IMG/VR virus record: IMGVR_UViG_2711768036_000007
Length of the DNA stretch: 39,927 nucleotides
Strand: one strand, 5' to 3'
DNA from: a virus
Taxonomy: Duplodnaviria; Heunggongvirae; Uroviricota; Caudoviricetes
Below, piece after piece: positions 6,395 to 37,359 of this stretch. The first letter of the stretch is position 1. Each line of letters opens with the position of its first letter. Position numbers and translations under genes: made by a program. The notes beneath the pieces were generated by a model. It saw only the letters and a program-made list of their open reading frames with translations. It did no database searches and was not told where the DNA came from.

Positions 6395-6565
6395 TCATGG
6401 ACGGCCTTGTTGTTTCAAAATATCCCAAAGCTTTTCGAGCAAACTTTTCATTCTTGGTTGTTTAAAGTCTGCTCCGGTTAAAATATTTTTTCGTGAATGC
6501 TGTACCGATAAAATCGGGTTGAAAGGGCGAACCGATGCCGCCCCTGCAATAGCGAACTGTTGCAT
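6395..6565 (-). CDS. cIII: cIII-like protein (FtsH inhibitor), 56 aa
   Basis: From internal Met: MQQFAIAGAASV...SLLEKLWDILKQQGRP resembles lambda CIII (MQYAIAG...SLLERITRKLRDGWKRLIDILNQPGVP); AGGAG RBS upstream. Confidence 0.6.
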   Translation of the reverse strand: MQQFAIAGAASVRPFNPILSVQHSRKNILTGADFKQPRMKSLLEKLWDILKQQGRP

Positions 6566-6631
6566 AGGATGCTCCTTCTGTTTGATTGCATAACGAAAAC
6601 GCCTCTCGTGAAGCGTTATTGGTATGCATAT

Positions 6632-6655
6632 AAAAAGGCCCTCACATTGGAGGGC
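6632..6655 (-). terminator. Rho-independent terminator in the leftward operon (tL-like)
   Basis: Minus-strand hairpin GCCCTC-6nt-GAGGGC followed by U-run. Confidence 0.45.
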
Positions 6656-6791
6656 AAAGAAGATTTCCAATAATCAGAACAAGTCGGCTCCTGTTTAGTT
6701 ACGAGCGACATTGCTCCGTGTATTCACTCGTTGGAATGAATACACAGTGCAGTGTTTATTCTGTTGTTTATGCCAAAAATAAAGGCCACCG

Positions 6792-7043
6792 TCAGGCAGC
6801 CTTGTTGTAAATGTTACAGGTATCAAGTAAGTAATTAGATGGAGCGCCATAAATTATGAATTCATCGTTTGTCGGGTCCATCTCCATCTCTTGGCCTATT
6901 GCCATTCTTGCGTCAGTGTCATCAGCGGCGAAGCATAAAACAGCCCACGCACCCATTGTTTTAAAAAGAACTGCAATTGGCTGTGGTTTTACTGAATTTG
7001 CGTTAGCGCGAAAATCATAAATCGCACTTTCATGAAATTCCAT
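6792..7043 (-). CDS. Hypothetical protein between N and cIII, 83 aa
   Basis: ORF in track. Confidence 0.45.
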   Translation of the reverse strand: MEFHESAIYDFRANANSVKPQPIAVLFKTMGAWAVLCFAADDTDARMAIGQEMEMDPTNDEFIIYGAPSNYLLDTCNIYNKAA

Positions 7044-7051
7044 ATCTCACC

Positions 7052-7357
7052 TCAATCGTAATAAGCTGGAATTGATTTTCCGCGTTGCTTCTGGCGGCCT
7101 GAGCATGTCACACCCATTTCACTGCGTGGCTTGCGGTAGTAAATACGATTCTGTTTACGATCGACTTCTTCTGCCTTCTTGCAGCGAAGGCTTCCGAGTG
7201 ATGCTGCTTTATCTGCCCTGACGCAACCAGAGAGCTTTAGCGCAATTTTTCGCGCCAGTCGCTGCTCTTGCATTGCCTGTTCACGTTGAGCCTGTCTGCG
7301 TGCTCTGCGGCGATTTCTGGCGTTATCGTCAGCCAGATATGTAATGACTACTGTCAT
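7052..7357 (-). CDS. N-like transcription antitermination protein
   Basis: From internal Met (GGAGG RBS): arginine-rich motif DNARNRRRARRQAQREQA near N-terminus; first large gene downstream of nutL. Confidence 0.65.
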   Translation of the reverse strand: MTVVITYLADDNARNRRRARRQAQREQAMQEQRLARKIALKLSGCVRADKAASLGSLRCKKAEEVDRKQNRIYYRKPRSEMGVTCSGRQKQRGKSIPAYYD

Positions 7358-7689
7358 GTTGACCTCCGGGAAGGTACACATCCTTGTGTGTCGATGATTA
7401 TTTGTTTTTGCGTTCCCACATCCAGTCATCTACTTCAGACCAGATGGTGAAACCGAAGCCGATGGCGAATGTGGTAACTAAACCACCGAGAATTGGGTTG
7501 GTAATGATGTCTAACATTTTCTGTTCCTCAGATGATTAGCTTTGGTGGTGTGGTCGGTGGGAGACCCATTTCGACCCGCTTCGTCCGACTTCAATTCGGC
7601 AATAGTCCCGCAGGCCTCGCCGCTTTACGTGCGACATATTCCCGTCCATGAACCCTTCACCACACCCCAAAGCCAACTACTCTTTGGTT

Positions 7690-7729
7690 CCCGCATTTCG
7701 GCGGGACAATCCCATCAATGTTAAAGAGC
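7690..7729 (-). promoter_or_regulatory. nutL (boxA GCTCTTTAA plus boxB hairpin CCCGCCGAAATGCGGG)
   Basis: Same boxA/boxB pair, same 15-nt spacing, as the rightward copy at 9359..9401. Confidence 0.6.
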
Positions 7730-7777
7730 CTGCCAATCTGTTCCGTTTGGCTTCCAGCGTCCTGCTGATGGCTAAAG

Positions 7778-7863
7778 AATACTGTAGGTATTTTATTGTG
7801 TAAATACCCAAGGTATTTATTTTTGATGAAATAATGATAAACAAATGAATACAAAGGATATTT
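7778..7863. promoter_or_regulatory. OL operator cluster / PL region (AATAC-N5-GTATT sites)
   Basis: Palindromic 15-mers at 7778..7792 and 7803..7817, degenerate third at about 7849..7863; same motif in OR. Confidence 0.55.
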
Positions 7864-7948
7864 ATTTTTTCGCTGTCTGCTTGTTCAGTGATTTTTATGC
7901 GGGATATGTGAAGTGGATCCCGATAGCTATTGCTGCCGGGATTATGGG

Positions 7949-8317
7949 TTAGTCAGCGAAGGTTAAGACGAGAATTACCTTAATGATGTCTGCTACAACA
8001 GACACGGCCATAGATAAACCAAAGACGATCCAAGCCACAGTGATGTCTTCACTACCATCGTATAGAGTTCCGTAATCACTGGTGTAAGGCGTAAATGTCG
8101 CGCCTTGATACAATAGGTATAAGCTTGATTCATAGAGGATAAATGCAGATATCCCTTGTATTGCTATGATCACAAGAATCATGAAACGAGCTGATCTATG
8201 CGCCCAAGCCTGGCTTATTTTTTCTGATAGAGATTTCGCAATAAAAGCATGCGCTAAGCCGTAAATTGTCGAGATTGCCAACATCCCAAAAAAGCTTGCT
8301 ATAGCGGTTCCAACCAT
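7949..8317 (-). CDS. Small polytopic membrane protein co-transcribed downstream of cI (rex/sieB position)
   Basis: 122 aa from ATG with AAGGGG RBS (track ORF starts at TTG overlapping cI stop); about 4 hydrophobic helices; rare codons visible. Confidence 0.6.
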   Translation of the reverse strand: MVGTAIASFFGMLAISTIYGLAHAFIAKSLSEKISQAWAHRSARFMILVIIAIQGISAFILYESSLYLLYQGATFTPYTSDYGTLYDGSEDITVAWIVFGLSMAVSVVADIIKVILVLTFAD

Positions 8318-8334
8318 AATCGCCCCTTGCGTGA

Positions 8335-9051
8335 TCAAACCAGCCTTAGTTTTGTCTCAATTGCAACGCCTATAATCTTGCAGTTTCCATTGATTGGCAC
8401 GAGAGGCCATGCAGGATTAAGTCCCTTGAGGTATTTATTTCCGCCGTCGATTATCAGCTTCTTGAATGTTGCTTCGTTAGAGTCAGAAAGTTTTGCTATG
8501 ACCAAGCTGCCGTTGATCGCCTCCCTTCCGGTATCGAAAAGAACGAATGTTCCCTCTGGAATGCTTAACCCAACCGGTGCCGTCATTGAATCACCTTCCA
8601 CTTTAAGCCAGAACGCATTACCTTGAATATGCGCGTCAGACTCAAGCCAAACATCTATGTCTTTAATGGTGTATGGTTCGCATGCTTCACACCACGAGCC
8701 AGCCTGGATACTGCTTAACACCGGATACCTCTTTCCTGCTCTGTATTCCCCTGCATACCTTACGTTGGCATCGCTCTTAAGGCTTTCTGCCTGTTCTGCA
8801 ACCTTGGCAGCAATTGACTGGCTAAAATCAGCAATTGAGACTTGCAACAGTCGTGCAAAACCAGATGCAACCTCAACGTTTAGCGCGTTTCTGCCATTAA
8901 GATAATGCCCTACCGCTCCTTGGGTGATACCCAGTTCATCAGCGATTGAGTATTGGGTTATCCCCAATTCTTTCTTTTTTGACTCATACAAAGCCTTAAG
9001 CCGCTTAGCGTCTTCGAGCTGTTCTGTCGTCAGTGATTTTTTATTTTCCAT
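8335..9051 (-). CDS. cI: cI-type prophage repressor (N-terminal HTH, C-terminal S24 LexA-like domain)
   Basis: 238 aa; HTH segment ITQYSIADELGITQGAVGHYLNG; C-terminal GDSM and K motifs of S24 peptidases; divergent from cro across operators. Confidence 0.85.
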   Translation of the reverse strand: MENKKSLTTEQLEDAKRLKALYESKKKELGITQYSIADELGITQGAVGHYLNGRNALNVEVASGFARLLQVSIADFSQSIAAKVAEQAESLKSDANVRYAGEYRAGKRYPVLSSIQAGSWCEACEPYTIKDIDVWLESDAHIQGNAFWLKVEGDSMTAPVGLSIPEGTFVLFDTGREAINGSLVIAKLSDSNEATFKKLIIDGGNKYLKGLNPAWPLVPINGNCKIIGVAIETKLRLV

Positions 9052-9086
9052 AGCTTAATTCTAATAGCTAAGGTACTTAAACTAAA

Positions 9087-9126
9087 AATACCCTGAGTAT
9101 TGATTGCTTTGAATACCTGTAGTATT
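9087..9126. promoter_or_regulatory. OR operator sites / PR-PRM region
   Basis: AATACCCTGAGTATT (9087..9101) and AATACCTGTAGTATT (9112..9126) between divergent cI and cro. Confidence 0.6.
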
Positions 9127-9157
9127 CTTTGTTCATGGTTAATAACGGAGAGTGCAT

Positions 9158-9352
9158 ATGATTCGAATGACACTTGCCGATTACGCCAAAATCCATGGAC
9201 AGGCTAAAGCAGCCAGTGACTTTGGTGTAATCCAGTGCGCTATCAGCAAGGCCATTCTGGCAGGCCGTAACATTATGGTTACGGTAAAGCCTGATGGCAG
9301 TGTGATTGGAGAGGAGGTTCGTCCTTTCCCAAGCAACAAGAAAAACAAATAG
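9158..9352 (+). CDS. cro: Cro repressor
   Basis: [33 protein letters not shown]... resembles lambda Cro; GGAG RBS. Confidence 0.8.
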
Positions 9353-9358
9353 TAACAC

Positions 9359-9401
9359 CGCTCTTTAACAGTCATGGTCCTCATTCCCGCCGAAATGCGG
9401 G
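9359..9401 (+). promoter_or_regulatory. nutR (boxA CGCTCTTTAACA plus boxB CCCGCCGAAATGCGGG)
   Basis: Between cro and cII; boxB identical to nutL copy. Confidence 0.65.
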
Positions 9402-9460
9402 AATACAACGCGCATAAGTTGATGCGCATAACTTCTTATTTGTTAAGGAAATACTTACAT

Positions 9461-9754
9461 ATGGTTCGTGCAAACAAACGCAACGAGGCTCTAAGAATCG
9501 AGAGTGCGTTGCTTAACAAAATCGCAATGCTTGGAACTGAGAAGACAGCGGAAGCTGTGGGAGTTGATAAGTCGCAGATCAGCAGGTGGAAGAGGGACTG
9601 GATTCCAAAGTTCTCAATGCTGCTTGCTGTTCTTGAATGGGGCGTCGTTGACGACGATATGGCTCGATTGGCACGACAAGTTGCTTCGATTCTCACCAAT
9701 AAAAAACGCCCGGCGGCAACCGAGCGTTCTGAACAAATCCAGATGAAATTCTGA
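9461..9754 (+). CDS. cII: CII transcriptional activator
   Basis: [51 protein letters not shown]... matches lambda CII as I recall it; track ORF carries a spurious N-terminal extension. Confidence 0.9.
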
Positions 9755-34986: not shown

Positions 34987-35121
34987 CCGTGATGCCTCAC
35001 CAGTTGGGTGGAATGGCATCGTAAAACCTACTGTACAAATCAACAATCGTACCATTTCGGTATGTAACAAATGCCAACCGTAGCCATGCTGCGGCGATTC
35101 CTTGTATCTGGAGCAAATTAA

Positions 35122-37359
35122 ATGACAGACATTACAGCCAATGTGATCGTATCAATGCCTTCGCAACTCTTCACTATGGCGCGTTCTTTTAAAGCCGTAG
35201 CCAATGGCAAAATTTATATCGGTAAAATTGACACTGACCCGGTAAATCCTGAAAACCAGATTCAGGTTTATGTAGAGAATGAAGACGGTTCTCACGTTCC
35301 TGTTTCTCAACCAATCATCATTAACGCTGCTGGTTACCCTGTATATAACGGACAGATTGCCAAATTCGTTACCGTGCAAGGCCATTCTATGGCTGTTTAT
35401 GATGCGTATGGTGCACAGCAGTTCTATTTTTCGAATGTGCTGAAGTATGACCCTGACCAACTCAGGCAAGATCTTGCATCTCAAGGAGGTGTTAATCTGG
35501 TAAACGGAGCTATCTCACAGGAAGATCTTGTTTTGCAGTCGATCACAAAAATTCCAAGTTATGATAATTCTAACGTAGTCCAGGCGTGGCGCGATAGTGT
35601 TGCGACCTACGGGTATGTTTACTTCTCTAATCATTCAAAAAATCAGATGGTGTACACCGTACCGTCTACAGCTGCTAACGCTTCTTTCCTTGCGAACAGT
35701 AAAGTAATCATTGATAAAAATGTCACCCTGAGATTCGACAGTGATCTGTACTCACTGTTTAAATCGTTGCAGTACGAGGGGGAGGGTACGTTTGAATTTA
35801 CGCACCTGAACTTTAAAGCAACCGGTGGAGAAGTGGATTATCTGGCTAAGCAGGCCATCCTCAACCGAAACCCTATTCGCATGAAGCGAGTGGAATGGTC
35901 AGATTGTAAAGTTTATTCCATAAATGGTGACACGTTCTTCTATGAAGGTGAAGTCACCATATCCTCAGATAGCGCAGCTATCTTCCCCTTAACTACTGAC
36001 CGTACAACAGGCCTGTTCGCACCAATAGATATTGGAGAGCATATTTCTGCACATATTCGTATGGAATCTCAGGCCGCCTCAGAAGTTGGGATTGTTCTGC
36101 GATGCTCTGGTGGTTGGATGATGTTCTATGGGGCACCAGGTGCTACACAGTGGTCTTATAGACAGAAACCAATTGGTGGTCCAGTAGCAGAAGGAACTCC
36201 ATTCCCGCTGCCAGGAGGTTTACTGTCGTACGCCCCGGGCAAAGCAACCGTTGGCGTATCACTGCAAGGTAAAAACTGGGCGCAGATAACGATGAATGGC
36301 GTTGGGATACGCTTGCCCTTTGATACTGCTGATGTAGGGGATGTATACGAAGTTGGGTTTGTTGCACTGACCCCGGCATCTGGAGGTTCTGCGCGTGTAA
36401 CTGGATTATGCAGCTACACCTCTGATAATGGTGTGCACGGTAAGCCTCCACTTAATATCCTTATCCACGGTGATAGTACAGCTGAGGATTTCATTTCCGC
36501 GTTCAGCTCGTACATTCCGCAATTAATGGATGGAGCGAACGGCCACCGTTCACATAGCATTGTAAACAAGGCAGTTGCCGGACAGACAATGAGGCAACAG
36601 TTAGATCTCCTGAAGGCTCAGGGGCCGGGTGATGCTTACATCGTTATTATGGTTGCCGGAACTAACGAAGGGCAGGCAAACCAAAACGGCGATTATATGG
36701 CGGCACTGATAGATGAGTTTGTCTTATATTGCAATGGCCTTGGTCGTATCCCTGTTTGGGTTGAGCCGTGGATGTGGTATAGCCAGTCATTTATTGGCGG
36801 TGCTGGTCAACCATCAGCAAATTACGATGGTGTTGCGGAGTTACGCGAGGCTGGTAAACGCCAGATGATGAAATATGGCAATAACGTCATTTGTGTAACA
36901 ACAACTCACCAGCTCCCGGCCCCATATCCAGAGTATTTCAACACGCAATACGACCCACTTCTGCGTGATGACATTCACCAAAGCCAGTTAGGGTATCGTC
37001 TGTATGCGGAAATTATCTGCTCTGCCATTATCGACTGGTGGTCGCGTGTTGATTACACGCCAAGAGCAGCTGTTCAATGGTGGGCTGGAACAAACGTAAC
37101 AGTACAGGAACCGTCAAGTTTAACTGCCAATTCAATTAATATTAAACTGGCAGCCACTTCATTTGCGAATGGCAATACTGTTCTAACGCTTCCGAGGTGG
37201 TGCAGACCAAAAGTAACCAAAAATGTCCCTGTACCGTTCACTGCTGATGGCGTTTCATTTGGCATGGCAATGGCCACCATTAATGCTTCAACAGGACAAA
37301 TATCGATTGAAGGGTCCACCACTACATCTCCAACGTTCTACATAGATGCGACATGGTAG
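35122..37359 (+). CDS. Tailspike: P22-type N-terminal head-binding domain fused to a domain with SGNH-esterase signature
   Basis: N-terminus [43 protein letters not shown] resembles P22 gp9; downstream blocks IHGDS, VAGQT, GTNE, DDIHQS fit SGNH blocks I, II, III, V. Confidence 0.8.

Follow-up and report, generated by a model that had tools for sequence, protein, structure and literature searches.

In phage lambda, a structured leader lies between NUTL and the Shine-Dalgarno sequence (SD) of the antiterminator gene N, and the work of Wilson et al. (1997, 2002), to the extent that it is recounted in PMC5725501, gives this leader a role in the translational autorepression of N and in the modulation of that autorepression by RNase III. 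The locus described here resembles the lambda N leader in that PL, nutL, a structured hairpin and a start site follow one another in the same order, with an SD and AUG ~20-25 nt past the homologous stem. Unlike in lambda, where the leader encodes no protein and the SD and AUG that come after CACCACCAAAGCTAA are those of N, the start site at this place belongs to an ORF of 39 aa. Small membrane proteins that are expressed early are known from virulent phages: T4 Imm and Sp, inner-membrane proteins of ~80-100 aa, are expressed from early promoters used by the host RNA polymerase and block superinfection. By analogy, the 39-aa peptide would likewise be a small immediate-early inner-membrane protein, although it is shorter than Imm and Sp.

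We analyzed the PL-nutL-N region of a DNA stretch of 39,927 nucleotides (IMG/VR record IMGVR_UViG_2711768036_000007, hereafter the window), which is a lambdoid prophage of E. coli. The initial annotation had placed a minus-strand ORF of 39 aa with a GAGG ribosome-binding site between nutL and an N-like gene, and the ORF listing returned the identical coordinates and peptide. It had further stated that lambda has no gene at this position, which agrees with the untranslated leader that lambda has there. The features of the region are as follows.

9051..8335, minus strand: cI, with Peptidase_S24 and HTH domains
8338..7949, minus strand: hkaS-like membrane protein, 129 aa, multi-pass hydrophobic, homologous to HK620 hkaS ('unknown')
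7804..7776, minus strand: PL promoter, with -35 TTTACA at 7804-7799, a 17-nt spacer and -10 TATTCT at 7781-7776, overlapping the OL operators (promoter scan and identity to HK620 pL/OL1-3)
7729..7688, minus strand: nutL, with boxA GCTCTTTAAC at 7729-7720 and the boxB hairpin CCCGCCGAAATGCGGG at 7705-7690, identical to the annotated HK620 nutL; boxB is seen in the fold
7676..7536, minus strand: structured leader domain with a 19-bp closing stem, 5' arm TTGGCTTTGGGGTGTGGTG at 7676-7658 and 3' arm CACCGACCACACCACCAAAGCTAA at 7559-7536
7538-7531 (left) and 7400-7393 (right), minus strand: 8-nt direct repeat TAATCATC, the two copies bracketing the SD and ORF and the right copy overlapping the stop codon
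7529-7526, minus strand: SD GAGG of the small ORF, with an 8-nt spacer to the ATG
7517..7398, minus strand: small ORF, ATG, 39 codons plus TAA, peptide MLDIITNPILGGLVTTFAIGFGFTIWSEVDDWMWERKNK (ORF listing and comparative data)
7389..7376, minus strand: small 5-bp hairpin ACACA-AGGA-TGTGT between the small-ORF stop and the N SD
7357..7052, minus strand: N antiterminator gene, 101 aa, HK620 type, with the arginine-rich motif NARNRRRARRQAQ and its own SD GGAGG at 7367-7363

Comparison of the window with HK620, in which OL, pL, nutL and N are annotated, revealed an identity of ~97-100% in two stretches, one extending from cI to nutL and the other from the N SD onward. The N gene of the window is ~99% identical in DNA to the annotated HK620 N, with a weak match to PF25694 (N_peptide), and its start codon lies 40 nt past the stop codon of the small ORF. 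The interior of the leader domain is of the 933W type (95% identical), and in 933W it sits between the annotated nutL and N. At the sequence level, the window is a mosaic of HK620-type PL/nutL/N and a 933W-type leader interior. The leader domain folds with -58 kcal/mol (z -3.7), and its closing stem is homologous to the lambda N leader stem GGCTTTGGGGTGTG...CACACCACCAAAGCTAA / GGCTTTGGGGTGTG...CACACACCACCAAAGCTAA, as read from NC_001416. An Rfam scan of 6500-9500 at E<=1 gave no match, and an assignment of the leader domain to the tRNA-like domain of a tmRNA was rejected, with ARAGORN finding neither a tRNA nor a tmRNA in the window. On the other side of PL, the gene of the 129-aa hkaS-like protein lies between cI and PL at the position of lambda rexB, overlaps the cI stop codon and has no Pfam match; in the lysogen it presumably shares a transcript with cI. 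The accepted lambda N protein has 107 aa. The lambda RefSeq entry gives N as 35037..35438 (133 aa; L022, 138-539), with a start inside the structured leader and upstream of the SD-preceded ATG at ~35360, which gives MDAQTRRRERR.

The interior of the nutL-N leader is swappable within the conserved lambda-like closing stem, measuring ~70 nt in HK620 and HF4s, ~125 nt in the window and 933W, and ~170 nt in 611R6. In the loci L006 and L007 it is ~96 nt longer than that of the window, and in E. coli AR_0058 it is tRNA-like. This tRNA-like element, located between nutL and the small ORF, is found in some related prophages with a P22-type N (AR_0058, NZ_CP021689.1, L019 1701-1782; also L041 and L043 2392-2473). 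RefSeq lists it as 'tRNA-OTHER' and ARAGORN as an 82-nt tRNA-Pro(tgg); it scores 38.2 bits against Rfam RF00005 (gathering threshold 29), with an anticodon loop of 15 nt compared with 7 nt in the model. The acceptor stem and ACCA of the element correspond to the conserved leader closing stem (...CACACCACCAAAG). The element may stand in, through RNase P/tRNA processing, for the RNase III site that the lambda N leader has. A search of the literature for this element found none.

Between the leader stem and N, the window contains ~165 extra nt, consisting of the SD, the ORF and the hairpin, whereas HK620, HF4s and 611R6 join ...AAAGTCAATCAT straight to CGGAGGTCAACATG (N). The small ORF is missing from these three phages though the flanks are ~97-100% identical, forming a presence/absence polymorphism, and lambda is also without it. 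The two TAATCATC copies around the SD and ORF suggest an insertion or illegitimate recombination. An 'empty site', that is, a leader with the hairpin and without the ORF, was sought in 5,426 E. coli genomes and none was found, so the direct-repeat insertion model stays unproven. The hairpin after the ORF occurs in almost all copies, with AGGA, UUCA or CGGA loops and one covarying pair (G-C in 6, A-U in 5) of modest statistical support; in one locus (L046) a different hairpin takes this position. Since it has no U-tract, the hairpin is no intrinsic terminator. The cassette is similar to lambdoid morons, which are likewise small accessory genes interposed where close relatives have two adjoining genes, with near-identical flanks and short direct repeats at the junctions. 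Morons, however, have their own promoter and terminator and are expressed autonomously from the prophage, while the cassette has neither. Read from PL, it is repressed in the lysogen and thus is no lysogenic-conversion unit.

A promoter and terminator scan from PL to the small ORF found neither element, and the promoter scan returned PL as the sole promoter-like site upstream of the ORF on the minus strand. With no terminator and no other conserved SD-led ORF in between, the small ORF heads the PL transcript, as had been expected in the initial annotation. The small ORF is followed at a distance of 36-57 nt, in each of the 46 lambdoid loci, by a gene for an arginine-rich N-type antiterminator. 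These N neighbors belong to at least six unrelated types, including the HK620 type, the P22 gp24 type (GNAKTRRHERRRKLAIER), a 933W/H-19B-like type and three others, and the loci carry several different immunity regions and leader cassettes. One peptide family beside at least six unrelated N types indicates that the peptide is far more conserved than the neighboring N. In L051 (IMG/VR UViG_3300048929_000017, 2501-2680), a short GGTGGTGG...CCACCACCAAAG hairpin comes after the ORF and is directly followed by a 933W-like N start site. Because the ORF is upstream of the leader stem in this locus, taking over the N start-site position is not general; what is constant is the position between nutL and N.

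Profile comparison placed the peptide in the family phrog_7482 (E 8.3e-24, 84 bits), with residues 1-39 aligned to profile positions 1-39 of 46. Shigella phage Sf18 gp86 and an Avunavirus protein match the same profile (E 1.6e-29 and 6.6e-24, respectively). The annotated homologs, which are 34-44% identical to the peptide, are found in the virulent myophages Mooglevirus (Sf18 gp86, 'putative membrane protein', 46 aa) and Avunavirus (45 aa), and further homologs occur in the Citrobacter phages Michonne and Mordin. Common to the family are the pattern M-x-[DE]-[IV]-x-x-NPIL-x-G, one transmembrane (TM) segment and a tail that is first acidic/aromatic and then basic; M1, N7, P8, I9, G12 and D31 are invariant in the alignments with the myophage homologs. 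The lambdoid peptide shares with the myophage members the NPIL-G motif, the single TM helix, the order of acidic-aromatic stretch and basic tail, and the position as first gene after an early sigma70-type promoter. It differs from them in its length (39 aa vs 45-46 aa), in the tail DWMW[ED]RKNK, and in its location in the nutL-N leader of a temperate prophage rather than in a virulent phage. The Mooglevirus and Avunavirus homologs directly follow a sigma70-like promoter, TTGCAA-17-TATAGT, which in Avunavirus is preceded by a terminator. Being promoter-adjacent in the myophages and first after PL in the lambdoids, the gene heads an early transcript made by the host polymerase in all three phage lineages.

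The family is narrow. A profile search yielded 13 clusters at E<=1e-3 among 1.84 billion representatives, two of which are spurious repeat proteins and ~11 genuine. The cassette is present in 31 of 5,426 complete E. coli genomes, every copy being chromosomal, with more copies in metagenome and isolate contigs and in 32 IMG/VR contigs. The carriers include E. coli N1454, GF66.2 and PKF8, whose segment is 100% identical to that of the window. The lambdoid form was found in none of 50,697 sequenced phage isolates, tblastn against plasmids gave no match, and the GTDB species-representative genomes contained no relative. The rarity of the gene indicates that it is dispensable. Searches of Pfam, NCBIfam, PADLOC and PDB sequences with the peptide or the family returned nothing significant. 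In two deletion/chimeric variants, a Logan SRR8140205 contig (L021, 2501-2665) and P0022, only ~22-24 codons of the small ORF remain, joined to unrelated sequence; L021 also lacks N and the genes after it, has erf as the next gene, and probably represents a defective prophage.

Analysis of the predicted product indicated that the most hydrophobic 19-mer comprises residues 9-27 in all members. Its Kyte-Doolittle mean is 1.58 for the window allele, compared with 1.9 for other lambdoid alleles and 2.6 for the homologs of the myophages. The initial annotation had called the peptide hydrophobic and named TM prediction as a check, and a membrane-spanning helix is indeed predicted at residues 9-27. 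The TM segment of the window allele is marginally hydrophobic by both this mean and the summed Hessa scale (+1.6 kcal/mol). Lys and Arg are confined to the C-terminal tail, suggesting a predicted N-out/C-in topology. AlphaFold2 with the family alignment modeled a single helix over residues 8-38, preceded by a short turn (residues 2-6) and a break at N7-P8, with a mean pLDDT of 84. Substitutions are conservative and concentrated in the TM core (LVTT/AIIT/MIAT/GLII), while the interface motifs NPILG (N-terminal) and DWMW-x-RKNK (C-terminal) are nearly invariant, a pattern that fits a specific interaction better than generic membrane insertion. The modeled product is likely a single-pass inner-membrane peptide in N-out/C-in orientation.

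The ATG at 7517 is the earliest start codon in frame past the preceding in-frame stop, and divergent copies of the small ORF retain a purine-rich SD (AGAGGAA, GGAGAA and AGAGGG). In the ORF listing, ~35 ORFs that reach 39 aa or more overlap the 4 kb around the small ORF, so a 39-codon ORF by itself is at chance level and the case for a gene is entirely comparative. A chance ORF in a non-coding leader RNA, with its conservation due to RNA structure or recent common ancestry, would fit this frequency, the >95% identity of many copies, the lack of a call by the RefSeq pipeline, and the one antisense frame that is also open in every copy. Comparison of the 46 lambdoid copies, which amount to 22 different DNA sequences and 17 different proteins, revealed, however, that each retains exactly 39 intact codons, including copies with protein identity as low as 72% and near-saturated synonymous divergence. 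The invariant residues N7, P8, I9, L10, G11, T24, S27, R36 (CGC/AGA), K37 and K39 (both AAA/AAG) and the stop (TAA/TGA) vary in their synonymous codons, indicating that the conservation acts on the protein and not on the RNA. Conservation and Ka/Ks in related prophages, the check proposed in the initial annotation, thus gave a frame kept in 46/46 copies under purifying selection, with pairwise dN/dS of 0.05-0.25 in divergent copy pairs; between the window and L015, pS is 0.79 (18 of ~23 synonymous sites differ) and pN 0.13. In a codon-position test, 22 of the 36 variable columns fell on third positions (p 6e-4). Since third positions coincide between the sense frame and the open antisense frame, this test is ambiguous alone and the frame-specific pN/pS decides. 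The pooled pN/pS is 0.21 for the sense frame and 0.52 for the antisense frame, the only other open one; the weaker antisense constraint comes without a conserved start, and the SD and ATG are conserved in the sense frame only. The antisense ORF (plus strand, 7384-7539, 51 aa, TTG start) overlaps the small ORF, and its openness in all copies appears to be a by-product of the common third codon positions. Together with the match to the profile of an independent family of phage proteins and the distant homologs in unrelated phages, the comparative data effectively refute the chance reading, to which we assign only a very slight probability, and on these data the small ORF is a real protein-coding gene.

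A translated leader could also matter to the phage with the peptide as a by-product, if translation of a cis-regulatory upstream ORF opened the hairpin or the N SD, shielded the transcript from Rho or RNases, or displaced N autorepression. Such a role would agree with the strict linkage to N in all 46 loci, with the conserved hairpin between the small-ORF stop and the N SD, and with an alternative fold in the window that pairs ACCUU with the N SD GAGGU. It would agree as well with the small-ORF start replacing the lambda N start beside the leader stem, where N/NUTL repression and RNase III act in lambda (PMC5725501). On the other hand, purifying selection acts on the amino acids over the whole length while synonymous change is free, homologous peptides exist in virulent myophages without an N gene downstream, and the SD-sequestering fold is neither conserved (ACCTTCC, ACCTACC and others) nor stabler than shuffled sequence (z 0.03). 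N keeps a strong SD (GGAGG) and a 40-nt gap, so translational coupling is not required. We consider a purely cis-regulatory role highly improbable, and a dual role, with an effector peptide that also affects N expression, possible. A host-killing membrane toxin, either type I-like (Ldr, Hok, TisB) or kil-like, which depolarizes or permeabilizes the inner membrane or arrests the host, is likewise unlikely. Like type I toxins, the peptide is small, with a single hydrophobic helix followed by a Trp-rich interface and a basic C-terminus; it also has a short local likeness to Ldr (PILGG-LVTT vs PILAG-IITA) and would be expressed only when PL fires. Pfam includes the Ldr, Hok/Gef, TisB and Lambda_Kil families. 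Neither these nor any other Pfam, NCBIfam or PADLOC family was matched at E<=1, and HHalign against LdrA reached a probability of only 14% over 12 columns, on which an Ldr identity was rejected. Type I toxins, to which no significant sequence relationship was found, have an overlapping antisense RNA antitoxin with its own promoter. In the sequence no sign of such an RNA was seen: a scan of the plus strand over 6600-8400 found no promoter-like site, and a terminator-like hairpin on that strand, at 7373-7392, mirrors the post-ORF hairpin as its complement, with a T-run that is the complement of Lys/Asn codons. The kil-like character suggested in the initial annotation was not supported. Kil of lambda is also a PL-operon product, but it is no TM peptide and coexists with the small ORF in related prophages, which carry both kil and cIII; there is no match to Lambda_Kil (PF06301), and L011 and L012 encode a separate PF06301 Kil besides the small ORF. 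Furthermore, a strongly depolarizing peptide as the first, strongly expressed PL product would be expected to hurt phage development, and the conservation of the polar motifs at the interfaces speaks for a specific partner over generic membrane damage. We regard the peptide as unlike Kil, as distinct by sequence from toxins of the Ldr/Hok type, and as more than a regulatory upstream ORF. The strict synteny with N could mean that the selected function is tied to N expression and not to a membrane target. A further reading, which we consider unlikely, is that the peptide is an immediate-early effector common to lambdoid phages and virulent myophages that, in the lambdoids, is functionally tied to the N module, the synteny reflecting function and not only recombination geography. 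The peptide might then occupy the autoregulated post-stem start site, so that N/NUTL and RNase III control its synthesis instead of that of N, or it might act at the membrane, e.g., on FtsH or another envelope factor, biasing early development or blocking superinfection or defense.

The reading that we favor, and consider probable, is that the ~165-nt N-leader cassette in a subset of lambdoid prophages carries the gene for a PL-driven, N-independent immediate-early membrane peptide selected for its sequence. The gene would be transcribed from PL as the first cistron upon infection or induction and be silent in the repressed lysogen. With no terminator ahead of the small ORF, the peptide is inferred to be made before and independently of N antitermination; it would be translated as the first PL product and then inserted into the inner membrane. 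In its predicted layout, an 8-residue N-terminal stub (MLDIITNP) precedes a helix through the inner membrane at residues ~9-27 and a cytoplasmic juxtamembrane tail, SEVDDWMWERKNK. Selection would act on the amino acids, chiefly on NPILG and DWMW-x-RKNK at the two membrane interfaces, and selection at this level points to the peptide itself as the effector rather than the mere act of translation. By analogy with other single-pass small proteins, and with low confidence, the membrane peptide probably acts during the first minutes of infection by binding and modulating an inner-membrane protein or envelope process of the host; speculative candidate actions are a block to the entry of superinfecting DNA and the neutralization or modulation of a membrane protein. 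In window-type loci only, the small-ORF start is at the lambda N start-site position and the N start is moved ~160 nt downstream, which may, speculatively, alter the translational autoregulation of N.

The small ORF had been described as unannotated, which holds for the supplied track and for RefSeq, where PGAP annotates it in 0/31 carrier complete E. coli genomes, but not for PHROGs (phrog_7482) or GenBank. The exact peptide is deposited in GenBank as BCT63437.1 and others ('putative membrane protein / hypothetical protein', ~800 contigs), with a second allele as EQV70448.1. GenBank versions of 61 and 67 aa were rejected as true forms, since their start codons are set too far upstream, within the leader. 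The peptide also shares a 90% identity cluster (454 members) with 101-aa proteins, which were likewise rejected as longer isoforms; they are N antiterminators joined by a clustering artefact, and this mixed 39-aa/101-aa cluster could mislead automated annotation. A search of the literature found no description of the small ORF or of its conserved place ahead of N, and a Pas sRNA paper and a 'tRNA-like' mention for phage L were set aside as concerning other loci. The small ORF is a real, already catalogued and uncharacterized phage gene for a small, predicted membrane protein, phrog_7482 being a PHROG without an assigned function. As an accessory gene of such a family, its importance is moderate on present evidence. 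Its presence means that the PL-nutL-N leader, a much-studied region usually taken as non-coding, contains a selected protein-coding gene in a subset of lambdoid prophages, and that genome pipelines, here RefSeq/PGAP, systematically drop such small genes. The homologs that head early transcripts in unrelated virulent phages point to a compact immediate-early phage small protein. Should it act on a specific target in the host membrane, it would join the few phage small proteins with known roles in host takeover or exclusion; should it change N autoregulation, the locus would represent a naturally occurring variant of this textbook circuit.
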